Source: Candidatus Saccharimonadota bacterium (GTDB lineage Bacteria; Bacteroidota; Bacteroidia; Cytophagales; Amoebophilaceae). Taken from it: DNA of 32,000 nucleotides. This document shows positions 546 to 32,000 of the stretch, piece by piece. Numbering within the stretch: the stretch's first letter is position 1; the number at the start of each line of letters is the position of its first letter. The position numbers and the translations under genes were made by a program. Location of the stretch: assembly GCF_964030745.1 (NCBI RefSeq), contig NZ_OZ034918.1, positions 900,001-932,000 of the forward strand, read 5' to 3'. The notes beneath the pieces are model-generated. The model worked only from the letters and a program-made list of their open reading frames with translations. It was not told the origin of the DNA and made no database searches.

Positions 546-3050
546 TTAGGTATAGTAAATCCGTTTCACCCTTTGGCTGATTTGGGTCAATAGCTCATAA
601 GGAATCGTACCCAGCTGTTCGGCTAGTGCATCTATTGAGTGTACTGCATTAAAGATAATCACCTCATCGCCACGTTGTGCGGTTATATTGGTCACATCAA
701 CCATAGCCATGTCCATGCATACATTTCCTATAATGGGACATGCATGACCTTGAATGATAACCCTTCCTTTACCACAACCAAATGATCTGCTTAAACCATC
801 TGCATACCCTATTGGTATGGTCGCAATCGTTATATCTTGCTGGGCTATCCCTTTTCGATCATATCCTATACTTTCCCCTTTTTGAATCGATTTGATCTGT
901 GAGATGGTCGTCTTCAGTGTGCTAGCTGGTAGGAGATACGGCTGAATGGTTTGATCAACACCTACGCCATGTAACCCAATCCCTAGCCGCACCATATCAA
1001 ATTGAAACTGCTGAAAACGTAGTATGCCATTGGTGTTTAAAAGATGTTTTAAAGGTTTGATGGCGAGCTGCTGTTCTATATATTGCGTCATTTTTATAAA
1101 CCTATCGGCTTGCAAAAGCGTATATGCATCATGCATGTCTTCTTGTGAAGCAGCTAAATGGCTAAAAATGCTTACGATATGTAGGGCAGGTATTTGTTTT
1201 AATTGCGTTATGAGCTGGTCTAGTGCTGTTTCTTCTATTCCCAAACGGTGCATACCTGTTTCTAGTTTAAGGTGAATGGGTATAGATTGGATCGATTTTT
1301 CTGATATAAAACACGCCAGCTCATCTAATAAGGGCAGGCTGTATACTTCTGGTTCTAAATGATGGCTTAGCATGGCATCAAAGTGGTCGTCGGTTGGGTT
1401 CATTACCATGATGGGTAAGGTAATCCCTTGTTGGCGTAAATGGATGCCTTCATCCATATAGGCAACGCCGAGATATTCTACACCATGGCGCTGTAGTGCA
1501 GAAGCGAGCTCAAAACTATTGCTACCACTTCCATAGGTAGAGGCCTTGACCATAGCCATGATTTTGGTACCTACTTGTAGTTTGCTTCTAAAGTAGGAGA
1601 GGTTGTGCCTAATGGCATGCATATCTATCTCTAAAATGGTTCCATGGCTATTTTTTTCCATCGTTTGCACCACCCGTTCTAGTCGAAAGCTGCGTGCTCC
1701 TTTTACTAAGATGGTTTCATCTTTAAAGGAGGGCTTTGCTGCTATAAATGCCTCTACACTATTAAAAAATATAGTTTCTGGTATTTCAAATAGTGTGCTG
1801 TGGTGACTGATAACTGGTCCAATACCTATCAATCGATGGATCGCATGTTTGGCCAATAGTGCTGCTAGTTCCTGATAAAGTTGATGGTCAGGTGTAGCAG
1901 ATTGGAGCATATCAGATAGGATAACCGTTCGTTTGGTGGGCTGTTGTTGTTGCATAAAATCTAATGCAAGTCTTAAGCTGGCGATGTCATTGGTGTAGGT
2001 ATCATCTATAACCTGGCAGCGATTCATGCCAGCTTTAAGGGTCATGCGCATCGGTATGGCTTTAAGCTGTAATAGTGAACGTTGCAGTAGTGCTGGATCA
2101 AGCCCATTGTCTAGTAAGTAGACCAGGCAATGGGTGATGTTTTCTATGGAAGCACTATCTCGAAAAGGGACTATAAAGGTGTTGGCGCGCTTATGGTTTT
2201 GGGTTGATCTAGTAATTTGTAACTTAGTTTGGCCAGTTAGCTGCTTGCATCTAACCAAATAATCTGCTGTTGGGTTGTTAAAAGACCAGTTTATCAGTTC
2301 GTTCTTATATCGTTTTCTAAGGACTTGGTCTACTAGGGGATGGTCTTTGCAGTAGTAAATGGTGCTACAGCCTGCAAACAATTTTATTTTCTCCTCGATC
2401 TTTTGCGTTATGGTTTGAAAGCCTTGGCTATGGGCAGGGCCGATATTAGTAAATAGCCCATGGGTGGGTTGTATGAGTCGAGCCAATTTTTCCATTTCAC
2501 CGGGTTGAGAAATGCCTGCTTCAAAAATGCCATATTCATGGTTGGGTTGTAATAAACTGATGGAAAGAGGTACGCCTACTTGAGCATTATAACTGTGTGG
2601 GTTGCTAACGGTTTTGTACTTTCTGGATAATAATTCATGCATCCATTCCTTGACAATCGTTTTGCCATTGCTGCCTGTAATGCTCAATAATGGTAATTGA
2701 TATTTTGATCGGTAAAAAATAGTGAATTGGTGTAAGGCTTCTAATGGGTCAGTTACCGCTAGAATATTTACATCGTTGTATTTTTCTATTATGGAATGAT
2801 TATATGCGTGGTTGACTACAAACTGGCGTATGCCTTTCTGATAAGCCTCTATTATATAATCATGACCATTATGGTTAATCCCTATAATCGCAAAAAAAAG
2901 CGGAAATGGCGTAAAGGTTTTGTTTCTGCTGTCTATACTTAATTCCGTTATGGGCAAGTTGGCTGTTTCAGCTACTGGGTAGCCTGCTGTAACCGCTACT
3001 AAGTCATTAAAGTGGCCCAGAATATGTGGGAAGGATATGGTTGATTCCAT
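546..3050 (-). CDS. murF-alr: Bifunctional UDP-N-acetylmuramoyl-tripeptide--D-alanyl-D-alanine ligase (MurF) / alanine racemase (Alr) fusion
   Basis: 834-aa ORF with an ATG start. The N-terminal half has the Mur ligase ATP-binding motif ITGSNGKT. The C-terminal half has the alanine racemase PLP-lysine motif MVKASTYGSG plus IPIGYADG and GNVCMDM. Confidence 0.93.
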   Translation of the reverse strand: MESTISFPHILGHFNDLVAVTAGYPVAETANLPITELSIDSRNKTFTPFPLFFAIIGINHNGHDYIIEAYQKGIRQFVVNHAYNHSIIEKYNDVNILAVTDPLEALHQFTIFYRSKYQLPLLSITGSNGKTIVKEWMHELLSRKYKTVSNPHSYNAQVGVPLSISLLQPNHEYGIFEAGISQPGEMEKLARLIQPTHGLFTNIGPAHSQGFQTITQKIEEKIKLFAGCSTIYYCKDHPLVDQVLRKRYKNELINWSFNNPTADYLVRCKQLTGQTKLQITRSTQNHKRANTFIVPFRDSASIENITHCLVYLLDNGLDPALLQRSLLQLKAIPMRMTLKAGMNRCQVIDDTYTNDIASLRLALDFMQQQQPTKRTVILSDMLQSATPDHQLYQELAALLAKHAIHRLIGIGPVISHHSTLFEIPETIFFNSVEAFIAAKPSFKDETILVKGARSFRLERVVQTMEKNSHGTILEIDMHAIRHNLSYFRSKLQVGTKIMAMVKASTYGSGSNSFELASALQRHGVEYLGVAYMDEGIHLRQQGITLPIMVMNPTDDHFDAMLSHHLEPEVYSLPLLDELACFISEKSIQSIPIHLKLETGMHRLGIEETALDQLITQLKQIPALHIVSIFSHLAASQEDMHDAYTLLQADRFIKMTQYIEQQLAIKPLKHLLNTNGILRFQQFQFDMVRLGIGLHGVGVDQTIQPYLLPASTLKTTISQIKSIQKGESIGYDRKGIAQQDITIATIPIGYADGLSRSFGCGKGRVIIQGHACPIIGNVCMDMAMVDVTNITAQRGDEVIIFNAVHSIDALAEQLGTIPYELLTQISQRVKRIYYT

Positions 3051-3315: not shown

Positions 3316-3657
3316 GTATCTATTCACGCAGAACAGCATTTTTTACATGGAGTATTGGTATACGCAGCACTTATGGCCACCGATAAAAAACTTCCGCTTT
3401 ACTGAAGCGCCGCATTCCTTTATCGGCGGCCACAATAGCTTTTCTGATCATTATCAGCCTCGCGTCTCCTTCGATAAAAAAATGGCGCTCTAGTAAAACA
3501 CTAACACTTGAGTGATATCTTTTTCAGCGGATTAGAAAATCGTCTGTTTGAAGCCCGCTTGCGGGCTGAGTTCACGATTTTCCCGCTGAAAAAGATATCG
3601 ATTCAGCTATTTACTATCGGGCCAGACTTTTTATCGAAGGAGATAAGGGGGCCAGCC
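3316..3657. repeat. Composite of nested palindromic elements: GTATCTATTCAC terminus, short family-B derivative (3371-3439) and reverse-oriented family-A body with GC-hairpin core (3460-3657)
   Basis: 3460-3657 matches the reverse complement of 28232-28435. 3371-3439 matches the two ends of 28501-28691 with the interior missing. The core TTTTCAGCGG...GAAGCCCGCTTGCGGGCT...CCGCTGAAAA lies at 3521-3593. Confidence 0.8.
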
Positions 3658-3673
3658 ATAGCTAGGCTAAAGG

Positions 3674-5556: not shown

Positions 5557-5814
5557 AGGTTATAACGGATGTTTAATGGTTTAACTAACGCAAATAGCTC
5601 ATTTGCTGGCTGATACTTTGCTCGCCCTTCTTTTCAAAGCAAGGGCAAGGCAACCAATCTGTTTGTTGGCCTATTATAGGCCTATACAGCCACCTAAATG
5701 TAGTGAAAAATATTCAAATAGCAATACCCTCTTGCGAAAGTGATTTGTGGTACGCATTTTTAGGGGAAGTAGCCTATGAGCACTGCAGCATGCTCAGCTG
5801 TATCTAAAATGGAC

Positions 5815-6342
5815 CTACTTCTTAGCTGTTAGTGGCGCTATGGTTAGGCTCATTTTTCTGCCTTCTAGTTTAGGTAGTTGCTCCACCCTTCCATAGGCTT
5901 CTAATCCTTGAGAAAATCTAAGCAAGATGAGCTCGCCCCTTTCTTTAAACATAATCTCTCTGCCTACAAACTTAACACAAACCTTAACTTTAGCACCAGC
6001 TTGTAAAAAATTAATGGCATGTTTTAATTTAAAGTCAAAATCGTGATCACTGGTATTAGGACCAAAACGAATTTCCTTTATAACAATCTTTTGGGCATTA
6101 TTTTTTATTTCCTTATGCTTTCGTTTTTGTAAATACTTGAACTTAGCATAATCCATTACTTTACATACAGGAAAATCACTGGCTTTGGTAATTTCTACCA
6201 AGTCAAGCTCTTGTGCTTCCGCAATGGCTAAAGCTTCACGAATGCTATACACACCGGAAACGACATTATCACCAACCAAACGTACCTCTGATGCAGTGAT
6301 ACGCTCGTTTACGTTATGGGCTTCTTTTATTGTGTTTTTCAA
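5815..6342 (-). CDS. infC: Translation initiation factor IF-3 (non-AUG start; exact start uncertain)
   Basis: 175 aa. IF-3 N- and C-domain pattern (INERITASEVRLVGDN...EALAIAEAQELDLVE...). The codon at 6340-6342 is TTG. There is an in-frame ATA at 6352-6354 and an in-frame stop further upstream. Confidence 0.93.
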   Translation of the reverse strand: MKNTIKEAHNVNERITASEVRLVGDNVVSGVYSIREALAIAEAQELDLVEITKASDFPVCKVMDYAKFKYLQKRKHKEIKNNAQKIVIKEIRFGPNTSDHDFDFKLKHAINFLQAGAKVKVCVKFVGREIMFKERGELILLRFSQGLEAYGRVEQLPKLEGRKMSLTIAPLTAKK

Positions 6343-6486
6343 ATGGCGTAATATTGATTATGATTTGTTGTAGACATTAATAGAGCCAGGGTCTTCCTAG
6401 CTTCCTGCATTAATATACAAACACTTAAACAAATTTTCAATAAATCAAGTCAAAAAACAAGCTATTTGGTTGTTTCCTTAGCCTAT

Positions 6487-7671
6487 TTAGGTTACAGGGT
6501 TTTGCTTGGATGCCACTTTAGCCCTTGGTCGCAAGATAAAAAATAGTCCTGCGATTGCCCAAGGCAAGCTAAGCAATTGGCCCATGTTCAACCACATGGT
6601 ATCTTCAAACTCAACTTGATTTTCTTTATAGAATTCATAAAGAAAGCGAATGCAAGCGGCTGCTAATATAAGTGTGCCAAAAATTCGACCAGGTGCGATG
6701 GCTTGACCTCTTTTGTACCACCATAGAAGTAGCATTAAGAAAAGCAAAAAGTAGGACAATGATTCATAAAGTTGTGCTGGGTGTCTTGGAATACCCCAGG
6801 TATGGATACGTGCCTGATAGCCTCCATTTTGTTTTTCCAAGGTGTAGGATAAAGGCGTTCCATAGGCTTCATAGATCTTAGGAGAGCTGTTAAAGTAGGA
6901 CTCTTGGATTAAATCGTTTTTTAAAGTTTTTTCAAGGAATTTTTTAACCTTCATTTCATCTGTCATCTCTTTTTTGAAATCAATAGTCAGTTCAATGGGT
7001 TGGTAATTGGTTTTTGTCGCTATTCTGTGGTCGGTAGATGGTTTGCCTATGGTTAAATTCTGAATAGTAGTGTCATATTTTGTGCATAAAGCCTCGTGTA
7101 ATTCTCTGACAAATATGATACCATAGTTGCCCCCAGTTGGTTTGCCAATGATTTCAGAATTCATAAAATTACCAATACGAATCAGTGTGGCACCTAAAGG
7201 AAATAGAACAGATAAGTGATCTAAGATCCACATAAATTCTCCAGGGGACCGACGGTTTTTAAAATAGATACGGGGAGGAGAAAGGGAAATTTTAATCCGT
7301 TTTGCATATAAGAAAACAGCAAGTACTATTCCCATACCCGCTCCATGACTGGCCAAGCCGCTGAATCCAGTTATTTTAAAGGTAGGGGAAAAGACAACAG
7401 GTAAAAATATTTCCAATAGGTGATCTTTATAGTAGCTCCATTCATAAAAAATAACATGGCCCAAACGAGCGCCAACCATTACGCTGATTACAATATACCC
7501 CTTGATTTGGTCGGCTGCTTCTCTTGGTTTACCAGCTTGGGCAAACATACGATACCAAATGGGAATGCCTCCCAATACACCGGTAGCAAAGAGTAAGTTG
7601 TACCAACGAAGTTTTAACAATCCTTTTGCAAATAGCTCTGGAGATACATCCCATATGATGGCGCTGGGCAT
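6487..7671 (-). CDS. lgt: Prolipoprotein diacylglyceryl transferase, long form with an insertion of about 100 aa
   Basis: 394 aa, polytopic. Lgt motifs RIGNFMNSEIIG and RHPAQLYESLSYF. A hydrophilic insert lies between them. Confidence 0.88.
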   Translation of the reverse strand: MPSAIIWDVSPELFAKGLLKLRWYNLLFATGVLGGIPIWYRMFAQAGKPREAADQIKGYIVISVMVGARLGHVIFYEWSYYKDHLLEIFLPVVFSPTFKITGFSGLASHGAGMGIVLAVFLYAKRIKISLSPPRIYFKNRRSPGEFMWILDHLSVLFPLGATLIRIGNFMNSEIIGKPTGGNYGIIFVRELHEALCTKYDTTIQNLTIGKPSTDHRIATKTNYQPIELTIDFKKEMTDEMKVKKFLEKTLKNDLIQESYFNSSPKIYEAYGTPLSYTLEKQNGGYQARIHTWGIPRHPAQLYESLSYFLLFLMLLLWWYKRGQAIAPGRIFGTLILAAACIRFLYEFYKENQVEFEDTMWLNMGQLLSLPWAIAGLFFILRPRAKVASKQNPVT

Positions 7672-9823: not shown

Positions 9824-9972
9824 AGACTTCTTTGGAAATGCTACTTCTGCTGGTAATTTGCACGTCGATCCGGATCCGGTGCTTAAAGCCTCACGTACAT
9901 CTAGTACGCTGCGGTTTTGCGTTCCGTGTCTCCTACAAATTCTTGAGCATAAGCGCGTTTCGAAAGCAGTCT
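9824..9972. repeat. Divergent copy of the 144-bp palindromic element family (family P)
   Basis: Termini AGACTTCTTTGGAAATGC / GCGTTTCGAAAGCAGTCT are inverted repeats. The interior shares blocks with 19466-19609 and 27561-27704 (ACATCTAGTA..CTGCGGT, CTCCTA.AAATT). Confidence 0.65.
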
Positions 9973-10074: not shown

Positions 10075-11469
10075 TTATAGGCCAGCTTCAACTCTTTTTA
10101 GAAGGGTATGGGCAATAAGGAATCCTTTATCTCTTCTTACCTCAAGAGAACGTTTGATGATAAAGGTGAGCAGTTGGGTGGGGTGTAGCCCAATTTCTGC
10201 TGCTTGATGGAATAAAAAGGAAGCGGGATTCATGCCGGCTGTAGTATTGGGATCGTTTAAAATGATTTGATTTTCATTGGTAATAAAACCATCTATACGG
10301 GCATATACTTGACACTCCAGTAGTTGGAACAAGGTGGCTGCTTTTTTACGAATGGCATCCAGCAGGGGGGCAGACAATACCATAGGGGTTTGTTTTCGTA
10401 CAATACCAGGCAGGTATTTTGCTCTATAGTCAAAATGCAGTTTTCCTTTTAGGATTTCAGTTGGTGGCAGCGCAATGGGTTTGCCTTTTTCTGCTTCTAA
10501 TACAATACAAGAAAATTCCCGGCCTTCTATAAAGGCTTCTATAATGATGGCTTCTTCTGCTTGGGCACTTATTAATACAATTGCATCTTGTTTTGTTTGA
10601 AAATAAATTTCTATATGGTCTAGTAAGTCGTGAGGGGTGTAGAACAGTTGATCTTCTATCCATAAGGGAAATCCTATGCCTTCGCGTACATCTATAAGGT
10701 TATTGAACCAATCTTTTTTGCCAGCTGGTGTATAGCTTTTCCAGCGCTCATAGCCTATTGTTTCGATAAAAAATGCTTTGTCAACAGCAGTGGAAAAGGA
10801 ATGCAGTGCACGGTTGTGCACAATGGTGACCCCTACAGAGGAGCCTTGCCTGCTGCTTTTCACAACAAAAGGCAGGCCAATGGTAGCGATGATTTGATCT
10901 AGTAGCTTGCCTGTATCTTTCCTGTTTAGCCATTCTTTTTGTGTTAAAATGCAAGAAGGGGGGGCTACAAAACCTGCATTTTTCAATAGTTTGTGTTGAC
11001 ATATTTTATGGATTCCCAGTGCAGCGGGTAATATATCAGATCCTGTATAAGGCACTTGGTACCACTCTAGTAGCCCTTGAATCGTTCCATCTTCTCCGAA
11101 AGGGCCATGCAAGCAGAGAAAAGCCATATCGAAGTATTTTGAAAAATCAGCAGGCTCTATTTTTTTTCCTATTTTTACAGCTTCATAATTCAGGGGAATA
11201 GGTAGTGATTCTATGTAAAGGGGAATTCCCCCAAAACTGGCTTCAGGAGTAGCTGGATAAAATTCTCGAATGGTACCCTGGTAAAGGTATTGTTTATGAA
11301 GGAGGATAAAATTTCCCAGGCTATCTACAAAAATAGGGACTGGTTCAAATATTTTCCGATCCAGGTGGTCGTAAACGGTACGTCCGCCTGCAAAAGAGAT
11401 TTCCCGTTCTCTGGACTGCCCGCCAAAAAATACCCCTACTCTAATGGGAGATGATAAACAATTATGCAT
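10075..11469 (-). CDS. ddl: D-alanine--D-alanine ligase family ATP-grasp enzyme, long form
   Basis: 464 aa. Ddl-like motifs FFGGQSREREISFAGG, LHGPFGEDGTIQGLLE, PFVVKSSRQGSSVGV and ARIDGF...LNDPNTTAGM. It is about 100 aa longer than typical Ddl because of two inserts. Confidence 0.8.
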   Translation of the reverse strand: MHNCLSSPIRVGVFFGGQSREREISFAGGRTVYDHLDRKIFEPVPIFVDSLGNFILLHKQYLYQGTIREFYPATPEASFGGIPLYIESLPIPLNYEAVKIGKKIEPADFSKYFDMAFLCLHGPFGEDGTIQGLLEWYQVPYTGSDILPAALGIHKICQHKLLKNAGFVAPPSCILTQKEWLNRKDTGKLLDQIIATIGLPFVVKSSRQGSSVGVTIVHNRALHSFSTAVDKAFFIETIGYERWKSYTPAGKKDWFNNLIDVREGIGFPLWIEDQLFYTPHDLLDHIEIYFQTKQDAIVLISAQAEEAIIIEAFIEGREFSCIVLEAEKGKPIALPPTEILKGKLHFDYRAKYLPGIVRKQTPMVLSAPLLDAIRKKAATLFQLLECQVYARIDGFITNENQIILNDPNTTAGMNPASFLFHQAAEIGLHPTQLLTFIIKRSLEVRRDKGFLIAHTLLKRVEAGL

Positions 11470-16030: not shown

Positions 16031-17219
16031 TGTAGTAGTTGATATTTAATCTGACAGGCAGTAAAAATTAGACTGTATAGATGTCAGTTAAGTTTAGTTT
16101 GTCAGGTATGCTCTTAAGATACGCGATTTGATTATTTTTTTCAAAGGCTAGTTTTTTACTATCTTCCCAAGTTTGTATAGGCGTTTTACCGTAACAGTAC
16201 TTTCCAGAATGTGGTCGCTCATGATTATAATAATGTAACCAGCTATCTAAATCTTGTTTCAAGACATCCAGGTCTGTATAGATCTTCTTACGCATAGCTG
16301 TATCAAAGAATTCCTGTTTCATCGTTTTATTAAACCGCTCACAGAACCCGTTGGTTTGCGGTGAATAGGCTTTAGTAACAGTATGTTCTATGCCTTCTAT
16401 GCTTAAAAACAACTCAAAGGCATGATGCTCTATTTTACCTTTATACTCAGTACCACGATCTGTTAGAATGCGCAAGAGGGGTATGCTTTGTTCTTGATAC
16501 CAAGGCAATACTCTATCATTTAACATATCAGCAGCTGTCAAGGCTGTCTTATCAGTATAGAGTTTTGCATGAGCTACCCGAGAATAACTATCTATAAATA
16601 CTTGCGTATAAACCTTACCTATCCCTTTAAAGTTACCAACGTAATAAGTATCTTGACAGCCTAAATAACCAGGGTGTTCTGTATCTATTTCTCCACATGC
16701 TTCTTGTTCATGCTTACGTTTTTCTAATGCGGATAGCTGAGATTCCGTTAAAACAAGGCCATCTTGAGCCATTTTAGCTTCTAAGGCTTTAAGACGTTTT
16801 TTTATATTATTTAAGTCATTACGTAACCAGATAGACCTGACACCGCCAGGAGAGACCAGGATACCTTGTTGCTTTAGTTCATTAGATACTCTAAGCTGGC
16901 CATAGGCTGGATAATCTATCGCCATATCTACTACTGCTTTTTCTATACTAGGATCTACTCTATTAGCCATAATCGGCTTCCTACGGCTTATCTCTTGTAA
17001 AGCCTCTTGACCGCCTGTTTCATACAAGGCTTTGAAGCGATAATAGCTATCTCTACTATAACCCATAGTTTTACACGCCGATGAAATGTTCCCCAACGTT
17101 TTTGCTAGCTCCAATAAGCCTACTTTCGGCTTGATGATTTTTTGATGTAAATTCATAATAGTAGTCGGTATTTATATCAACACAAATTAATAAATGTCAG
17201 ATTAAATATCAACTACTAC
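16031..17219 (-). mobile_element. IS481-family insertion sequence, 1189 bp, perfect 26-bp terminal inverted repeats, no flanking target-site duplication
   Basis: TGTAGTAGTTGATATTTAATCTGACA (16031-16056) is the exact reverse complement of 17194-17219. TGT...ACA tips. A single DDE (rve) transposase ORF lies inside. Confidence 0.92.
16068..17156 (-). CDS. IS481-family DDE transposase (integrase core domain)
   Basis: 362 aa. N-terminal HTH region. DDE contexts [19 protein letters not shown] and [14 protein letters not shown]. Confidence 0.93.
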
Positions 17220-18397
17220 ACCTTACCCTTACCCTTACTCATCATACTCTTAGGATTCTTTTTATTGTTAGCTCGCTTGCTTGGGTACATATCATATAGT
17301 TCATTTTCTTCTTGTTCTCTTGCTTTCTTATTTTTGATTTCTTTCGCTGCTGCTGTTACATTGGTTATTGCTTGTGTTATAGCTTCTTCTGTTTTTTTTA
17401 TATCTCTAGATTGGTTTAATGCCTTGGTCTTTAATGCTTCTGCTATTGAATTTAATGTTGGTTGTAATTTTATCTGATTCTCTGGTTTTTTTATTTCTTT
17501 TCCTAGCTCTTTTATTTCTTTTCCTAGCTCTAGCGCCTCTTTTTTTTGAGTTTGTAAAGATTTTTCATGTTTTTCTATGCACTCGACCCTTCTTTGCACC
17601 TTATTAGACTTCGTTGAGTTTTGTAGTTGTTCTATGATACTACTTATTTCTTTTTCTTTGAACTTGATTTCTAATTTTTTTATCGTACCTATTGTTTGTT
17701 CTACTAATTTTTTACATTCCTGTAGTTGACTATCAGTTTCTACACTAGGTGTAACAAATACTACATCAGGTCCTTTTTGCGTTGGTTTTTGTTTCTGTTT
17801 CTGTTTCTGTTTCTGTTTGTCCTTGTTCTTGTTCCTGTTCTTGTCCTTGTTCCTGTTCTTGTTCTTGTTCTTGTTCCTGTCCTTGTTCTTGTTCCTGTCC
17901 TTGTTCTTGTTCTCTGTGTTTCCCTTTTTTGCTATATCCTGCGTTGTTTCTATCCTTTGCGCTGTCTTGTTCGCATGCTCTATCTGTTTTACTTCTTCTT
18001 CACCTCCTTCCTTTTCTAGTGTTGTTGTATGCTGTTGGTTTGGCTTGTTCTTATCTACATCCTTTATCTCTTGCTCTTGGTTGTATTGAGTTTTTGGGTC
18101 AGTTGCGCCTTCATCGTTATTATTCTTGTTTGCCTGCTCTTTCCTTTGTTGAGTAGGTATACCTTTGTTGCGCTGCGTTGCTTGATCAGTTATGGCTGTT
18201 TCACTAATGATGGTATTGTTTGATCCAATACATGCCAACCTACCTCTTGATGAAATTGTTATATGATCCTGAATATATTCCTGACCGTTTAGAATGGGTG
18301 GGCGGGGCAAGTTGTATTTCTTAATGTTTTTGCATGCAGCTGCTATTAAAAACGTTAAGCACAAACATAGTTTTACTATAGATTTAATGGTATCCAT
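17216..18397 (-). CDS. Orphan lipoprotein with K/N/Q low-complexity tract and coiled-coil-like C-terminal part; the stop codon is supplied by the IS481 inverted repeat, so it is probably 3'-truncated
   Basis: The preferred start is ATG at 18395-18397, giving MDTIKSIVKLCLCLTFLIAAAC (lipobox). This aligns with the MHTTKFILKIYFCFTFLIAGAC of the 155-aa paralog. The ORF-track start at 18418 is TTG. TAG at 17216-18 lies inside the IS terminal repeat. Confidence 0.7.
   Translation of the reverse strand: MDTIKSIVKLCLCLTFLIAAACKNIKKYNLPRPPILNGQEYIQDHITISSRGRLACIGSNNTIISETAITDQATQRNKGIPTQQRKEQANKNNNDEGATDPKTQYNQEQEIKDVDKNKPNQQHTTTLEKEGGEEEVKQIEHANKTAQRIETTQDIAKKGNTENKNKDRNKNKDRNKNKNKNRNKDKNRNKNKDKQKQKQKQKQKPTQKGPDVVFVTPSVETDSQLQECKKLVEQTIGTIKKLEIKFKEKEISSIIEQLQNSTKSNKVQRRVECIEKHEKSLQTQKKEALELGKEIKELGKEIKKPENQIKLQPTLNSIAEALKTKALNQSRDIKKTEEAITQAITNVTAAAKEIKNKKAREQEENELYDMYPSKRANNKKNPKSMMSKGKGKV
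17791..17910. repeat. Hexanucleotide tandem array (20 units: GTTTCT x4, then YYTTGT variants) encoding the (QK)n/(NK/NR/DK)n tract
   Basis: The period-6 repeat is directly visible. An adjacent 21-bp tandem duplication at 17491-17532 encodes the repeated KEIKELG. Confidence 0.9.
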
Positions 18398-18595
18398 TAC
18401 ACTAATATGGTCAGCCAAAATGGTGCGCTGGCCAATCCTTTTGATTGCTTAGATTTGGCATACGGCTTGTATAGAGGGCAGCTTTAGCTGCTGCTATTAA
18501 AGTTAAGCAAAAACATTACTGTAATGTATACTTAGTAGCATGATGCAATTAGTGCGTGTTGGCTATCGCTTATTTTTATGTTTTTTGCTAAACTT

Positions 18596-19312: not shown

Positions 19313-19465
19313 ACTTAATAATCTGGCTATATTATTTTAATGCTTTAGTTTATGCTTATCTACCACTTAAGGTAAGTAAGTTTGTAAGCCAAAAGTTACA
19401 AGACTTCTTGCAGTAATCAAAAAATTAATCTTAAATAAATTGATGCGGTTATACAAACTTCACAC

Positions 19466-19609
19466 TAGACCTTCTGCAAAACCTATTTCTAATGGCAATT
19501 TTGGTGTCGAAGCTTGTCTATGCTCCTCAAATACATCTAGTATTCTGCGGTGCTCGACTGCGCTTCTCCTAAAAATTGCTGATCACAAATAGCTTTTGCA
19601 GAAGGTCTA
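19466..19609. repeat. 144-bp palindromic element (family P), intergenic reference copy
   Basis: Perfect 16-bp termini TAGACCTTCTGCAAAA / TTTTGCAGAAGGTCTA. The roughly 105-bp interior is about 90% identical to the reverse complement of 27561-27704. Confidence 0.9.
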
Positions 19610-19642
19610 CTATTGTATGGGGGTAATTTATTCTTTTTATGC

Positions 19643-25541: not shown

Positions 25542-28157
25542 ATGACTAAGCCCTTCTTGCCACAACGGTATAATTTTTTAGAACGGGAAAGCCATTGGCG
25601 CCGCTTTTGGGAAACAGAGGCGTTATATAGCTGGGACCCCACTGCTTCTCGTTCAGATACTTTTGTAGTAGACACACCGCCTCCTACTATTTCTGGGCAG
25701 CTGCACATAGGCCATGCTTGCAGCTATGCACAAGCTGATTTTATTGTACGCTTTCAACGCATGTTGGGTAAAAATATTTTTTATCCGATGGGATTTGATG
25801 ACAATGGTTTGCCTACAGAACGGTTGGTAGAAAAACAAAAAGGTGTGCGTGCAGCCAGTATGGATAGGGCAGCTTTTATAGGGTTATGTCAAGAGGTAGT
25901 GGCTACACAAGAGGAACATTTTAGGAATCTTTTTAAGGCTATGGCATTGTCTGTTGACTGGAGCCTAGAATATCAGACGATTAGCCCATTGTCTCGTAAG
26001 CTTTCGCAGATGTCTTTTTTGTCACTTTTAAAGAAAGGTGAGCTATACCGTAGTGCACAGCCTATGTTGTGGGATCCAGTAGATGGTACTGCTTTGGCAC
26101 AAGCGGATATTGAAGATAAGGAGCGTACTGCTTATATGCATGAGATCCTATTTACACATGAAGCGACGCAGGCTCCCTTAGCCATTGCTACGACCAGGCC
26201 GGAGTTGTTGCCTGCTTGTGTGGCTTTGTTCTACCATCCAGATGACCCGCGTTACCAACAGCTTGCCCATACTTATGCCATTGCCCCTATATTTAACATC
26301 AGGGTTCCTATTTTAGCAGATACCTTGGTGCAACCCAATAAGGGAACTGGTTTGGTGATGTGTTGTACTTTTGGAGACCAAACTGATATTATATGGTGGA
26401 AAAAGCATCAACTACCTACTTGTATCATTCTGAATAAGCAGGGTAGGGTTACGCATGCTGGTCCATTGGAAGGGTTAAAGGTCACAGAAGCACGTGAAAA
26501 AATCATTCAAATCTTAAAAGAGCAGTCGTTTTTGGTCAAGCAAACGCTCGTGCATCAATCTGTAAAATGTGCAGAACGTTCTGGCGCGCCCTTAGAGATT
26601 TTGACGACTCCTCAATGGTTCGTACGGACCATAGACCATAAAGCAGCACTGTTGGCTAAAATTGATCAACTCAAATGGCACCCTGCTTCGATGCAGCATA
26701 GGCTCAAGGAATGGGTAGGTGGTGTGGCTTGGGATTGGTGTATGAGCCGCCAGCGTTATTTTGGCGTACCTTTTCCTGTTTGGTATTCTAAGAGGGCTGG
26801 AGAGGAAGGTAAAGTTTTGTTGCCCACTATAGCCCAACTGCCTGTGAATCCTCTTGAGGATCTGCCGATAGGCTATACAAGGGAAGAGGTAGAGCCGGAC
26901 TATGATGTGATGGATACTTGGGCAACGAGTAGTATTTCGCCACAGCTTTCTTCTCATGCGATTGATAAGGACTATAGTGTGGATTATAATAGACATCTGC
27001 AGTTATTTCCTATGGATTTGCGGCCACAAGCCCATGAAATTATACGGACTTGGGCCTTTTATACCTTGCTGAAAGCCCATTTGCATGAGGATAGTCTGCC
27101 TTGGAAAAATGTTATGATCCATGGGTGGTGTCTGGCGTCAGATAAGCAGAAAATGTCTAAGTCTAAAGGCAATGTGTTGCTACCTGAAAAGCTTTTAGAA
27201 ACATATGGGGCGGATGTTATCCGTTATTGGGCAGCCAATGCGCGTTTGGGTGCAGATACGCACTATTGTGATAATGTGATGAAAAATGGAAAACGGTTGG
27301 TTACGAAGTTATGGAATGCCGGCAAGTTTATTTTGAGCCATTTTGATCAAGTAGAAGGGTTCAATCAGCTGTTTGAGTGGCAAAAGATCACCCATACGCT
27401 AGATAAATGGCTGTTACAATCACTAGCAGAACTGACTAAAAAGGTTCATCTGCAGTTCCTATCCTATGGGTATGCCGAGGCGTTGGAGTCGGTAGAAAGA
27501 TTTTTTTGGTCTGTGTTTTGTGATGATTATATTGAGATTAGTAAAGCCAGGGTTTATGATAGCCCTCTTTCGAAAGCGGTTTGTGATGCGCAATTTTTAG
27601 GAGAAGTGCAGTCGAGCACCGCAGAATACTCGCCTGTATTTGAGGAGCATAGACTAGCTTCGACACCAAAATTGCCATTAGAAATCGAGTTTCGAAAGAG
27701 GGCTGGGTTGCAGCAGGATAGGCAGGGGCAGTCTAGCGCTATGCTAACGCTTTACCATGCCTTTTATGGTCTGTTACAGCTTTTTGCGCCTATTTTACCC
27801 TATATCACGGAAGAACTTGCTCAGGGGATGTATCCCCATAAAGGCTCTATTCACCAAAGGGGTAATTGGCCCAAATGGCCATTGGATACTATGCTCAGTC
27901 AAGCGGAATTAGACCAGGTTGCCCATCTTAGGGAAATCATTGGGTTGGTACGTAAGGCGAAAGCTGATGGTAAGCGTTCTATAAAGGCGCCGATTGAGTT
28001 GTTGGCCATTAGGGGTACGGTTTTAGATGAGGATTTACGTGAAGACCTTCAAGCTGTGACGGCTGCTACAGAGGTTGTGTTTGGTGACCTGGCGTTGGAT
28101 GGTATGGAGTTGCAGGTGGTGGGTAAACAGTGTGCGATAGGGATTGTGTGGGGGTAA
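25542..28157 (+). CDS. valS: Valine--tRNA ligase, archaeal/actinobacterial-type, carrying a 48-codon in-frame palindromic-element insertion
   Basis: 871 aa. HIGH (SGQLHIGH) and KMSKS (QKMSKSKGN) motifs. Also [12 protein letters not shown], editing-domain block [23 protein letters not shown], and [17 protein letters not shown]. Confidence 0.93.
27561..27704. repeat. 144-bp palindromic element (family P) inserted in frame within valS
   Basis: Termini AGCCCTCTTTCGAAA / TTTCGAAAGAGGGCT are perfect inverted repeats. The interior is about 90% identical to the intergenic copy at 19466-19609 in reverse orientation. Length is 144 bp, or 48 codons. Confidence 0.9.
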
Positions 28158-28218
28158 GGGTTTGGTTTTCAATCAAATAAAGCTATTAGGGGGGGCTTAT
28201 AGCTATTAAAGGACTTAT

Positions 28219-28496
28219 GTATCTATTCACGTCTCTGACTGGCCGCCTTATCTCCTTCGATAAAAAGTCTGGCCCGATAGTAAATAGCTGAATCGATATA
28301 TTTTTCAGCGGGAAAATCGTGAACTCAGCCCGCAAGCGGGCTTCAAACAGACGATTTTCTAATCCACTGAAAAATATATCGCTCAGGTGTTAGTGTTTTA
28401 CTAGAGCGCCATTTTTTATCGAAGGAGACGCGGGACGGGTACTTGGTCAGCTATTTGCTTTTTCAGAAAAACGTAATCACAGTGATGAATGGATAC
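28219..28496 (+). repeat. Full-length family A palindromic MITE-like element (278 bp) flanked by the 8-bp direct repeat GGACTTAT
   Basis: Termini GTATCTATTCAC / GTGATGAATGGATAC. GC-hairpin core at 28302-28374. GGACTTAT at 28211-28218 and 28497-28504. Confidence 0.9.
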
Positions 28497-28500
28497 GGAC

Positions 28501-28691
28501 TTATAGCCGCCGATAAAAAATGGGACACTTCAGTAAACTGTAGTTTTTAAAATATCTGTTTTTCAGCGGATCAGAAAATCATCTTGTTCGAAGCCCGCGT
28601 AGCGGGCTGAGTTTATGATTTTACCGCTGGGAAACAGATATTTTCATTTTTTTTACTGCGTGTCTCATTTTTTATTGGCGGCTGTAATAGC
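28501..28691 (+). repeat. Family B palindromic element (termini TTATAGCCGCCGATAAAAAA / TTTTTTATTGGCGGCTGTAATAGC) with the same GC-hairpin core
   Basis: The inverted termini are visible. The core at 28560-28634 is about 85% identical to 3521-3593. A short derivative without the core lies at 3371-3439. Confidence 0.8.
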
Positions 28692-28789: not shown

Positions 28790-29272
28790 TTAATAAGAAG
28801 GGGGGAGTTCTTCAAGAATTTGCAAGGAATTGGGATAATTCGATTCTGTGTTAGGTTCTGTTTCCGTAGAGATGTTAGGGATCCAGTCACGTATAAGAGT
28901 AATATGGAACAGTGACAACCAATTCATAAACTTTTTAATATATTCTTGCTCTTGCTCTATAAATGAGCTATTATGCACTTTCAAATTAAGTACGTACTGG
29001 CTACGCGTTGAAAACGTATTAATATAATTCACTAATACGTCTAATTGCTTCAACCACCTAGTTTGTTCTAGCTTTTCTATAGTTTCTAGTAACTCTTTTG
29101 GTTCTTTTTTATATAGATTTATATCCATATTTGGTTCTGCATCAGGTCCATGGATTTGCTGATAAAGCATCTTATAAATATCGTATATGAATTCGATTTT
29201 TACGTCTTCATCTTCTGTCGAATTGAGTATATCATGGCTGTCTGTTACAAAATCGCTAATATGCTTATGCAT
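28790..29272 (-). CDS. Hypothetical protein, paralogous to repeat modules of the 566-aa lipoprotein; possibly the 3' part of a disrupted gene
   Basis: 160 aa. IYKMLYQQIHGPD...KEPKELLETIEKL and LVNYINTFSTRSQYVLN match modules in 30143-31843. The frame stays open upstream to about 29390 without an ATG. Confidence 0.55.
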   Translation of the reverse strand: MHKHISDFVTDSHDILNSTEDEDVKIEFIYDIYKMLYQQIHGPDAEPNMDINLYKKEPKELLETIEKLEQTRWLKQLDVLVNYINTFSTRSQYVLNLKVHNSSFIEQEQEYIKKFMNWLSLFHITLIRDWIPNISTETEPNTESNYPNSLQILEELPPSY

Positions 29273-29456: not shown

Positions 29457-29693
29457 TCAGATCATTTTTAAATCGATGATCGATAGGTAAGGTAATTCAT
29501 TCGGTTGTGTGTCATTGTTGTTGTTATTATTATAAGATGTGGATTCTAGCTCTCTAATCTCATTCTTTATTTGGCTTGCATTACACCCAACTAAATGGAT
29601 AAATAAACCATTAGATACAGCCAGCATTATCGGAAATTTTTTCTTTGAAAAGAAAAAACCCTTGCGGATTGATTTGTTTTTGTTTATACTCAT
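29457..29693 (-). CDS. Lipoprotein signal-peptide fragment (78 aa), N-terminal paralog of the 566-aa lipoprotein; probably the 5' part of a disrupted gene
   Basis: MSINKNKSIRKGFFFSKKKFPIMLAVSNGLFIHLVGC is near-identical to the N-terminus of 30143-31843. The ORF stops after a poly-N tract. Confidence 0.5.
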   Translation of the reverse strand: MSINKNKSIRKGFFFSKKKFPIMLAVSNGLFIHLVGCNASQIKNEIRELESTSYNNNNNNDTQPNELPYLSIIDLKMI

Positions 29694-29793
29694 ATGTGTA
29701 ATTGGTTTTTAATTATAATTTTAGTTTAGGTCCATGCATTAAGAGGCGATACCTTTAGGTGTACGCTACACTTAAAGGTAAATTGGTCAGTTC

Positions 29794-30142: not shown

Positions 30143-31843
30143 TTAGTTGGTATCTGAATCTGAATCCATAGGGGAATATTTAGTGCATTTTGGACCGAAT
30201 TTTTGTTTTTTATGAGGAAGCAGAGATACGGCACCAATTAATTTACTCAATTTGCACTTCACCTTTTTCAATAGGTTCTCTTTTGTATTAGGTTGTAGTT
30301 CACTATAAACGTTAACCACCAAGTCGTCATACACAGCGTAGAACTTTGTTTCCCAATCAGAATAATCTTGAGGGTTAGTAAGTACCTTACGGCTAGATTC
30401 TACAAAATCATTAATATTTTGTATTAATGAAGCTAGTTTATTGAACTCGGTAGCGCATTTTTCTGTTAACTCTTCTAGAACGTGTGATGGCGATTGTGGT
30501 TTTTGATTTCCATATGACGCTACTGGCTTATATCTATTGATAATGTCATTATAAAGAATAGTATCGAGCTTGCATAGGCTTTGTATTGCCAAAGCATATG
30601 CAACGTTTAATGCCATTTCCTTAGCATATTTTTGGTTTCTTCCAATTTCCTGCGCTTCTTCTTCTTGTAAAAAAACCATAGATAGCATGAACCTTACAAT
30701 CGGGTCAAGCTTCCTAACCAACACTATTAATGAATCTTGCTCGTGGGGGGATAAAGCTGATTGGTTCTTAATATTTTCTTCGTTTGTTAGAACTTGTATA
30801 TCCTCTAATAGCGCTTTTGGTTCTTTATCTATATTCGAATATCGATCACGTTTGTAGATTTTTTTATATAGAATCTTGTGCAAATTATCAAGATTTTCTA
30901 GCGATTTTGGGTTTATACACTGCTGGGCTCCTTTATAAAAGCTCTTGCACAAAGCGTCAATATTCCGGGTTGCTAGTTTGTGGACTTCTCTATAAAGAGA
31001 CGCATAGAATAATGTGTCATCATCATTCCTTTTGATAGCATCCTTTTTGATTGCGCGTATTTTGTTGTCTCTGGAATGAAGGATGCCCCGTATATTGGTT
31101 GCAGCATCGTAAAACGGCTTGCATATAAGCTTCGTTAACTTGATAACCAATTTTGTTGCTAGCTCTTCTATACCGCTTAATAAGCGTTCTAAATTTTGAT
31201 TGCTAATTTCCTCTATTGCATCATATTCGTGTACTTTTTCATAAAGCATCTTGTAGAGTTTGTACGCTTTGTCTGTACAATTTAGAGCTGGAAAATACGA
31301 TAGAATAGCATAGAAGCTCGTTTCGAAATCAGTCATCAAGTTTTTATCAATAGTTTTTTCATTAGTCAGTATGTTACGGCTTGCCTTTACAAATCTATTC
31401 ACCCAATTTATTAATTGGCCTGTTTCCGTCGAATCCACAGCATCTAGGATCGGGTAACCAGGTCCTTTTTGATTTACTACAAAGAGAATTCTGTTCTTTT
31501 GTATGCAGTCTTTTTGATTTTCTATAATTTTTAGTAGCTCTTCTAGCCCTTTATATTGTAGATCAGATCTTTTATTTTCTTCACAAAGAAATTCGCAAAC
31601 CTTGAGTATGTAGTCTTTTAGAGGTTGGTTTGATATTATATAGGATTCTCCATCAAGACCGTATTCTTTGTAAGAACCCACATTGTTTGTTTGTTCTTTC
31701 TCAAGAATAAACCCATTCTTAACCTGGTTATTACACCCCAGTAAATGGATCAACAAACCATTAGATACAGTCAGCATTATCGGAAATTTCTTTTTTGAAA
31801 AGAAAAATCCCTTGCGGATTGATTTATTTTTGTTTAAATTCAT
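30143..31843 (-). CDS. Orphan lipoprotein with internally repeated helical modules
   Basis: 566 aa. Signal peptide with lipobox LLIHLLGC. Repeated modules LINWVNRFVKASRNILTN...DFETSFYA / LIQNINDFVESSRKVLTN...DWETKFYA, and KLYKMLYEKVHEYD...LERLLSGIEEL / LHKILYKKIYKRD...KALLEDIQVL. Confidence 0.75.
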   Translation of the reverse strand: MNLNKNKSIRKGFFFSKKKFPIMLTVSNGLLIHLLGCNNQVKNGFILEKEQTNNVGSYKEYGLDGESYIISNQPLKDYILKVCEFLCEENKRSDLQYKGLEELLKIIENQKDCIQKNRILFVVNQKGPGYPILDAVDSTETGQLINWVNRFVKASRNILTNEKTIDKNLMTDFETSFYAILSYFPALNCTDKAYKLYKMLYEKVHEYDAIEEISNQNLERLLSGIEELATKLVIKLTKLICKPFYDAATNIRGILHSRDNKIRAIKKDAIKRNDDDTLFYASLYREVHKLATRNIDALCKSFYKGAQQCINPKSLENLDNLHKILYKKIYKRDRYSNIDKEPKALLEDIQVLTNEENIKNQSALSPHEQDSLIVLVRKLDPIVRFMLSMVFLQEEEAQEIGRNQKYAKEMALNVAYALAIQSLCKLDTILYNDIINRYKPVASYGNQKPQSPSHVLEELTEKCATEFNKLASLIQNINDFVESSRKVLTNPQDYSDWETKFYAVYDDLVVNVYSELQPNTKENLLKKVKCKLSKLIGAVSLLPHKKQKFGPKCTKYSPMDSDSDTN

Positions 31844-32000
31844 GCGTGTAATTGGTTTGCAATTATATGTTTATAGTCTCGTCTAGACCCATGCATTGAG
31901 AGACGCTACCAGTGTGCGCAGCATGCACCTGACAGTAAAACGATCACTTGATGTATGGGTTCTTTTATACACCTTACTAGCCGTGTAAAAGATTATGCAA

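Follow-up and report, generated by a model that had tools for sequence, protein, structure and literature searches.

The valS locus and its host

The 32-kb stretch of DNA analysed here (the window; contig NZ_OZ034918.1, positions 900,001 to 932,000) carries a valS gene, encoding a valine–tRNA ligase (ValRS), whose reading frame passes through a 144-bp palindromic insert that very probably belongs to the Rickettsia palindromic element (RPE) family RPE-1. The coordinates of the gene, of the insert and of the related elements in the window are given in Table 1. Protein comparison placed the nearest relatives of this ValRS in Cardinium (81–86% identity), with the best match, when the insert is set aside, in the Cardinium endosymbiont of Nabis limbatus (86%), and the window is therefore assigned to Cardinium (Bacteroidota, Amoebophilaceae). 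In an alignment of orthologues the catalytic and anticodon-domain blocks of the enzyme are all conserved, and the comparison with the Nabis limbatus Cardinium orthologue gave a dN/dS of 0.089 (dS 0.97, NG86). The gene is under strong purifying selection and, given this ratio, is not a decaying one.

Table 1. Features of the valS locus, states of the insertion site and further RPE-1 copies in the window
Feature	Position	Strand	Description
valS, valine–tRNA ligase of Rickettsia/archaeal type	25542..28157	+	871 aa, open frame intact; NF009687 1035 bits
RPE-1 core in valS (very probable assignment)	27561..27704	+	144 bp, 48 codons = ValRS residues 674–721; minus orientation relative to family model
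GAT codon directly 5' of the core	27558..27560	+	likely target triplet; AAT in 2/3 orthologues, fits family ANT target
Filled site, window valS			GTT TAT GAT (144 bp) GGG TTG
Empty site, Nabis limbatus Cardinium valS			GTC TAT GAT GAA CTG
Empty site, Sogatella furcifera Cardinium valS			GTT TAT AAT GCA CTG
Empty site, Cardinium valS orthologue P0006			GTC TAC AAT CAA ATG
Intergenic RPE-1 copy	19464..19611	+	core 19467–19608 (142 bp), ACT at 19464–19466 and 19609–19611; nhmmer E 8.4e-37 (19466–19609)
Intergenic RPE-1 copy, Rickettsia/Tisiphia-like subfamily, between ssb and ddl	9824..9972	+	149 bp; nhmmer E 1.6e-35
Truncated RPE-1 half copy (model positions 65–142), downstream of infC	5728..5805	-	nhmmer E 1.1e-8; cut off next to another repeat

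As a side observation, the valS genes of Cardinium and other Amoebophilaceae are themselves of the Rickettsia/archaeal type, scoring 1035 bits with NF009687 against 471 bits with the usual bacterial model PRK05729. Their products are 59–63% identical to the ValRS of Rickettsia and are devoid of the bacterial C-terminal coiled coil, which suggests that valS was replaced horizontally long ago, in an event that would be unrelated to the insertion described below.

An in-frame palindromic insert in ValRS

A first-pass annotation, made from the letters of the window alone, had read positions 27561–27704 as a reverse-oriented copy of an intergenic element at 19466–19609. Formal alignment (MAFFT, blastn) confirmed this: the valS copy and the reverse complement of 19466–19609 are 92% identical over 113 bp and 88.9% over 126 bp (blastn E 1e-42 to 1e-43 within the window), and they have in common an exact 23-nt core, of which none is expected by chance and which no shuffle of the window reproduced. 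The perfect terminal inverted repeats reported for both copies were also recovered, measuring 15 bp at valS and 16 bp at 19466. The interior of the valS copy is 92% identical to that of the 19466 copy, the terminal stems only 55–65%, yet each stem is perfectly self-complementary. As DNA, the valS copy folds into a full-length hairpin (-35.4 kcal/mol, z -7.3), and none of 200 shuffles was as stable.

The reading frame of valS passes straight through the element, and the 48 added codons lie, as the annotation had it, between ISKARVYD and the helices that follow (GLQQD...LYHAF). Alignment with orthologues established the insert as lineage-specific with exact borders: none of the 25 aligned proteins (20 Cardinium/Amoebophilaceae-like, five Rickettsia) contains its 48 residues, and an empty site can be read at the DNA level in three Cardinium valS orthologues, compared to which the window gene is longer by exactly 144 bp (Table 1). 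The length of the loop at this site varies among the aligned orthologues. The protein matches Pfam tRNA-synt_1 and Anticodon_1. The insert is far in sequence from the catalytic core and lies within the anticodon-binding domain, splitting the Anticodon_1 match into two stretches; in an AlphaFold model it falls between two confident helices (residues 644–671 and 727–748), with a predicted local distance difference test (pLDDT) score below 50 for the insert itself.

Assignment to RPE-1

In isolation, the 48-aa peptide encoded by the insert matches the NCBIfam model TIGR01045 ("palindromic element RPE1 domain"), a 48-residue profile with a cut-off of 30 bits, at 32.3 bits (E 7e-8, profile positions 3–47 of 48). 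A motif common to the three full copies of the window, AGTANNCTGCGGT-N13-TCTCCTA, was used to scan one genome per species from 185,579 bacterial and archaeal species and returned 78 loci. All but three were located in Wolbachia (wCori and WolPenNig among them), Rickettsia, Tisiphia, unclassified Rickettsiales or alphaproteobacterial metagenome-assembled genomes (MAGs), and Cardinium, the latter represented by the Nabis limbatus chromosome OZ239769.1 and Cardinium sp. TP. The three remaining loci (a Bacteroidetes MAG, a spirochaete and Prevotella) are chance matches, which a hidden Markov model (HMM) of the family does not recognise. The same HMM (nhmmer) matches the valS copy over 27560–27704 with an E-value of 6.5e-38.

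The retrieved copies align end to end with those of the window, which are up to 84–86% identical in DNA to Wolbachia or Rickettsia copies; on TIGR01045, a Wolbachia copy among these relatives scored 50.6 bits and a Rickettsia copy 75 bits. For the valS copy the nearest sequences outside Cardinium are Wolbachia copies at 83–84% (wCori, WolPenNig and the symbiont of Cantharis cryptica), and its interior is closest to other Cardinium copies (89–92%); its stems are Wolbachia-like. In a rough neighbour-joining (NJ) tree, alphaproteobacterial clades enclose the Cardinium copies at three distinct positions.

The first-pass annotation had described a palindromic element sitting in frame in valS and behaving as Rickettsia palindromic elements do, which our results bear out; it had also attributed the likeness to convergence, which they do not. 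Under convergence, Cardinium would have evolved a palindromic, translation-tolerant repeat of its own, independently of the Rickettsia elements. The host does belong to a different phylum, and the valS peptide is a borderline case on the RPE1 model, barely clearing its threshold. However, an independent origin is hardly credible in view of the full-length DNA identity of 84–86% to Wolbachia and Rickettsia copies, with length, ends, hairpin register and reading frame all in common, of the 50–75 bits reached by sister copies on TIGR01045, and of a window-derived motif that retrieves almost only Rickettsiales and Cardinium from the species genomes scanned. We conclude that 27561–27704 is very probably an RPE-1 copy in the valS of a Cardinium, horizontally acquired from Rickettsiales symbionts, similar to a transposable element of the miniature inverted-repeat type (MITE) and inserted in frame. 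It has the profile match, the stem-loop palindrome of about 100–150 bp, the dispersed genic and intergenic copies and the in-frame insertion absent from orthologues that define RPE-1; the host is Cardinium and not Rickettsia or another member of the Rickettsiales, a departure in host range, which is a historical and not a structural attribute.

Hairpin, target site and reading frame of the family

The RPE-1 core is modally 144 bp long, starts with AGAC, ends with GTCT and forms one long hairpin. The consensus structure derived from 67 copies comprises 37 pairs, with 93.5% of the cells paired as against 39–48% when the partners are slid by one to three columns, and compensatory double changes are found in 25 of the 37 pairs (9–15 in the slid controls). 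On none of five measures did any of 500 shuffles reach the observed value. Part of the signal comes from the existence of two old subfamilies and not from many separate events; even so, three or four kinds of pair are seen at many positions of the terminal stem.

Separately from this, the terminal stem was seen to exist in two versions, ...CTTGCAAAA.../...TTTTGCAAG... and ...CTTTCGAAA.../...TTTCGAAAG... (alignment columns 17/152 and 19/150), each of which occurs in Wolbachia, Rickettsia and Cardinium copies and cuts across the subfamilies based on the interior. Recombination between copies or repeated switching could account for this pattern.

When the triplets flanking the core (AGAC...GTCT) were read in the HMM-aligned copies, identical 3-mers were found on both sides in 50 of 68 copies, whereas permuted pairings gave 18.6 +/- 3.4 with a maximum of 32 (2000 permutations). 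The duplicated triplet has the consensus 5'-ANT-3'; AAT and ATT predominate, and ACT and AGT also occur. Among the 54 copies with ANT on both flanks, the free middle base is identical in 50, and the triplets are therefore repeated directly and do not prolong the palindrome. In the window, the 19466 copy is bounded by a perfect ACT/ACT duplication, in line with the family-wide ANT pattern. In valS, AAT, one of the two commonest target triplets of the family, is the orthologue state in two of three cases, and the triplet after the core is GGG (27705–27707), with no recognisable right-hand duplicate. The first-pass annotation had seen no target-site duplication at any of three copies; that holds for the valS copy and fails for the 19466 copy and for the family at large.

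The trimmed length of 147 nt, corresponding to a 144-bp core, was found in 49 of 67 copies. As the core and the 3-bp duplication together amount to 147 bp (49 codons), a typical insertion cannot shift the frame. In addition, the RPE1 frame, which is the one used in valS, is free of stops in 40 of 67 copies, against approximately 2.5 expected, the other five frames being at expectation. Open frames of at least 200 aa contain 25 of 73 copies, 24 of them in the orientation seen in valS, and roughly half of the Wolbachia copies sampled are situated in long open reading frames (ORFs). The frequent survival of RPE-1 inside genes is explained by this combination of a 3-bp duplication, a core length divisible by three and a preserved open frame. 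In the window, the RPE1 frame is open in the valS copy and has been lost through indels and stops in both full intergenic copies, a pattern that selection on valS would produce.

These observations bear on the possibility that the element is real but valS is decaying, or that the mature protein no longer contains the insert. Pseudogenes abound in symbiont genomes, and the 144-nt segment, taken as mRNA, has a very stable predicted hairpin (-67 kcal/mol). Nevertheless, we regard decay or removal as unlikely: the 871-codon frame is open and under the constraint given above, its catalytic and anticodon-domain blocks are conserved, the insert retains the one stop-free frame that the intergenic copies of the window have lost, no features of an intein or intron are present, and RPE inserts of Rickettsia are recorded as staying in mRNA and protein, as in guanylate kinase (Ogata 2000 and Abergel 2006, as cited).

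Mode of mobility and search for a mobilising enzyme

The 3-bp duplication marks RPE-1, on sequence grounds, as a putative MITE moved by staggered cleavage. It has the terminal inverted repeats of such elements and, at the level of the family and in the 19466 copy (the valS copy being without it), a target-site duplication of fixed length; a parental autonomous insertion sequence (IS) with the same ends was not found in 614 kb of sampled loci and the window. A scan of RPE-like ends 200–4000 bp apart gave nothing consistent. A second scan, for any ANT-flanked inverted-repeat pair 300–3500 bp apart, gave three leads, all rejected as autonomous partners: L033 (degenerate IS3-like) and L022 (IS630-like) are not related to RPE-1, and L039 consists of two separate RPE copies around queD- and cutA-like genes.

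The last locus (5677–6873, Tisiphia endosymbiont of Hybos culiciformis) is of interest in its own right, with two inverted RPE-1 copies, both flanked by ATT, bracketing the queD-like and cutA-like genes; the arrangement resembles a composite transposon, which may or may not be mobile. Another locus (L080, 2494–3978; metagenomic ENA contig NODE_2236, sample ERZ1030128) holds a 494-aa ORF in which an RPE1 segment (residues 286–333, 36 bits) links an ArnT/PMT-like N-terminal portion with NusB, and a second copy lies at the start of the contig. In this ORF an RPE-1 copy seems to connect two adjacent genes in a single frame.

Another possible mechanism is hairpin-dependent single-strand transposition of the IS200/IS605 or REP/RAYT-like kind, or an RNA-mediated route, in place of the cut-and-paste movement of a MITE by a DDE-type transposase. 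The very strong covariation that preserves the whole hairpin would fit such a route, as would the lack of a DDE partner with matching ends in the sampled loci. IS200/IS605-type elements, however, are not known to duplicate their target on insertion, and the regular 3-bp direct duplication of RPE-1 is the signature of staggered double-strand cleavage by DDE-type transposases; the 15–16-bp terminal inverted repeats also fit a MITE. Some subgroups of the IS5 family produce duplications of 3 bp. On balance we consider a single-strand or RNA route not very probable and retain the MITE-like one.

Spread and activity in Cardinium

On the Nabis limbatus Cardinium chromosome four copies of RPE-1 occur at separate loci, all with different flanks, and are 95–98% identical to one another, which argues for a recent multiplication inside this Cardinium genome. 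The valS locus of the Nabis symbiont, chosen for comparison on grounds other than an RPE hit, also contains an RPE fragment. Short ORFs resembling RPE1 were revealed by peptide searches in the Cardinium of Dermatophagoides farinae and in that of Philonthus spinipes; a word-indexed search gave three matches, all from Cardinium, and an exhaustive HMMER search 32 representatives. A Cardinium-subfamily motif had no match in the JGI metagenome contigs. Some Cardinium ORFs are already named "palindromic element RPE1 domain-containing protein" by NCBI.

With this distribution in hand, an artefact of assembly or binning can be weighed, in which the insert, or even the whole Cardinium family, would derive from wrongly joined Wolbachia or Rickettsia reads. 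Cardinium frequently co-occurs with one or the other in a single host, no exact counterpart of the insert-bearing ValRS was found in the protein collection, and the valS–RPE junction left no trace in the JGI metagenome contigs. Against this, the insert is exactly 144 bp, in frame, stop-free and placed between two codons, and the valS sequence on either side of it is of Cardinium type; its interior is nearest to other Cardinium copies; three further copies of the window lie between Cardinium housekeeping genes; and copies are found at several loci of the complete chromosome OZ239769.1 as well as in four other Cardinium genomes. An artefact is thus very unlikely, and we take the valS copy as a genuine part of a Cardinium genome.

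The presence of the family in Cardinium cannot be due to vertical inheritance from a Rickettsiales ancestor. RPE-1 very probably reached Cardinium by horizontal transfer, and probably more than once, and we infer a direction from Rickettsiales to Cardinium because the family is broad in the Rickettsiales and elsewhere restricted to Cardinium. Exchange of genes and insertion sequences among Cardinium, Rickettsia and Wolbachia has been documented (Duron 2013 and Penz 2012, as cited), so that a transfer of RPE-1 would fit a known route.

Proposed history and points against it

We propose that RPE-1 is a non-autonomous, MITE-like element whose insertion, as seen at the level of the family, duplicates a 3-bp target, 5'-ANT-3', and whose core is stop-free in one orientation and frame, such that an insertion thus oriented into a tolerant loop would leave the host protein intact. 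It would have come from Rickettsiales symbionts sharing arthropod hosts with Cardinium and later have multiplied inside Cardinium genomes. The valS copy would have landed directly after an (A/G)AT triplet, in the loop between two helices of the anticodon-binding domain, after the source lineage had split from the other sequenced Cardinium. The right-hand duplicate would have been lost or never made, leaving a net gain of 144 bp, and the insert would be expressed in both RNA and protein, forming an excursion of 48 aa at the surface of a still functional enzyme.

Several points weigh against this interpretation. The valS copy does not have the duplication of its family (GAT, core, GGG) and adds 144 bp and not 147, so that its history requires an additional step, for example a loss of 3 bp or an ancestral loop shorter by one codon. 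Scored within the whole ValRS, the RPE1 domain reaches only 25.4 bits, below the cut-off that it passes when scored alone. The copies compared were found through an exact motif, which biases the sample towards well-conserved members, and the NJ tree was built from about 150 columns only. The AlphaFold model, computed from 26 sequences, is poor (mean pLDDT 61) and does not demonstrate a surface position. The support for a translated insert and an active enzyme is indirect (the low dN/dS and the retained open frame). No transposase or longer element with matching ends was found in the sampled 614 kb and the window. No vehicle of transfer was found either, with 0 copies in IMG/VR viral contigs, PLSDB plasmids (either subfamily) and INPHARED phages. 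Finally, a density of about one RPE-1 copy per 8–9 kb is an extrapolation from the 32-kb window, a limited sample.

In-frame insertion of RPE-1 into housekeeping genes is already known. What is new against the literature surveyed is modest and consists of a Bacteroidota host, valS as a target, indications of several cross-phylum transfers together with recent activity in Cardinium, and the ANT duplication combined with a core length divisible by three. A broader idea, that RPE-1 is a currently mobile, frame-neutral MITE crossing phyla among arthropod endosymbionts (Wolbachia, Rickettsia, Tisiphia and Cardinium) and not an heirloom of the Rickettsiales, is put forward tentatively, as one that falls a little short of being the likelier outcome. 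If it is true, the enzyme that moves RPE-1 should be among the few mobile-element genes common to Rickettsiales and Cardinium, because the element multiplies in both, and the mechanism becomes directly testable; such an enzyme should make 3-bp staggered cuts, which narrows the search further. A young in-frame RPE-1 in a Bacteroidota valS would mean that the family crosses phylum boundaries, is active after transfer and still remodels core enzymes of translation. For annotation there is a warning in this, as extra segments of about 48–49 aa in housekeeping proteins of symbionts may be insertions of mobile elements.

Further copies and other repeats in the window

The family HMM finds four members in the window, one of them genic. 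The first-pass annotation had counted three copies, which stands for the full-length ones (the third being that at 9824–9972), and had missed the truncated half copy at about 5728–5805. The 19466 copy forms a strong DNA hairpin (z -7.7; none of 200 shuffles folds as well) and is nearest to the four Nabis limbatus Cardinium copies (90–92%), followed by Wolbachia (86%). The 9824 copy has an internal 6-bp duplication, a right flank AAT with the left flank degenerated to CAA, a weaker hairpin (z -2.1) and its best match in a Rickettsia copy (84%).

Two other proteins of the window show extra segments: in a D-Ala-D-Ala ligase (Ddl; 464 aa, 10075–11469, minus strand) and in Lgt (394 aa, 6487–7671, minus strand) the family matches fall into two stretches with approximately 65–100 residues between them. 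These segments are not RPE-1 by the HMM and not palindromic, and no RPE model in NCBIfam matched them.

A second repeat family, unrelated to RPE-1, is present at 19–500, 3452–3661 and 28216–28690 (185–500 bp, 95–98% identical) and holds short palindromic units (54–153, 3465–3643 and 28251–28428) with perfect 16–17-bp inverted repeats, e.g. TCTCCTTCGATAAAAA / TTTTTATCGAAGGAGA. A direct repeat of 144 nt (29580–29723 and 31730–31873; 88% identical, spaced by 2150 bp) is found at the 5' ends of two paralogous ORFs (28790–29272 and 30143–31843) with no family match; the RPE HMM gives no match to it, and its length, equal to that of the RPE-1 core, is coincidental. Among the remaining features are a MurF–alanine racemase fusion (ORF 546–3050, minus strand, 834 aa; 1009 bits with NF008897, the model of the bifunctional ligase/racemase) and a tandem repeat of about ten CTT/GTT-rich 12-nt units (17777–17942) inside a 400-aa ORF (17216–18418, minus strand) with no family match.

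Comparison with known systems

RPEs are a textbook case of selfish DNA surviving inside essential protein genes. The peptides inserted by them were reportedly placed by Ogata in 2002 at the surface of the protein and at a distance from the active site, and palindromic elements of Wolbachia are said to have been described by Ogata, Suhre and Claverie in 2005; Wolbachia also holds the nearest matches of the valS insert outside Cardinium. In the literature surveyed, RPEs are described for Rickettsia and Wolbachia, and in that searched (with the 2002 and 2005 studies represented by citations to them) no report from Cardinium or any other member of the Bacteroidota was found. Blanc et al. (2007) suggested, from one family shared with the Anaplasmataceae, that RPEs date back to the ancestor of the Rickettsiales, and interpreted their joint occurrence in Rickettsia and Wolbachia as vertical descent.

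Rickettsia RPE-1, the RPE family described first (Ogata et al. 2000; TIGR01045), and the valS element have in common the 48-aa translated unit, a length of about 144–147 bp and a long hairpin, and both families are dispersed in multiple copies, enter conserved housekeeping genes in frame and favour a single coding frame. Unlike the Rickettsia element, the valS copy is of a Wolbachia-like or Cardinium subfamily and scores low on a model built from Rickettsia, and valS is not among the RPE-bearing genes named in the literature surveyed. The 3-bp ANT duplication is not stated there either, the duplication of RPEs being listed as '?' by Delihas (2008).

Within Cardinium, MITECca01/02 of strain cOegibbosus are likewise non-autonomous inverted-repeat elements that have proliferated in their host genome (Halter et al. 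2022, PMC9769881). MITECca01 is 240 bp long, derives from the IS982-family element ISCca4, is reported as unique to its strain, and is found chiefly between genes or within other mobile elements, without being described as translated (PMC9769881). The valS element differs in size, origin and distribution and is set apart from MITECca01 by this published description rather than by alignment.

RPE-1 resembles other bacterial MITEs (ERIC/IRU, Correia/NEMIS, Nezha) in its small size, terminal inverted repeats, target duplication, lack of a transposase of its own, stable stem-loop and occasional in-frame copies. According to reviews, those elements mostly duplicate TA and rarely enter genes, whereas in RPE-1 both the core and the duplication are multiples of three and most copies carry an open frame. 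Its survival within genes is common (25 of 73 copies) because core and duplication preserve the triplet register and one frame is kept open.

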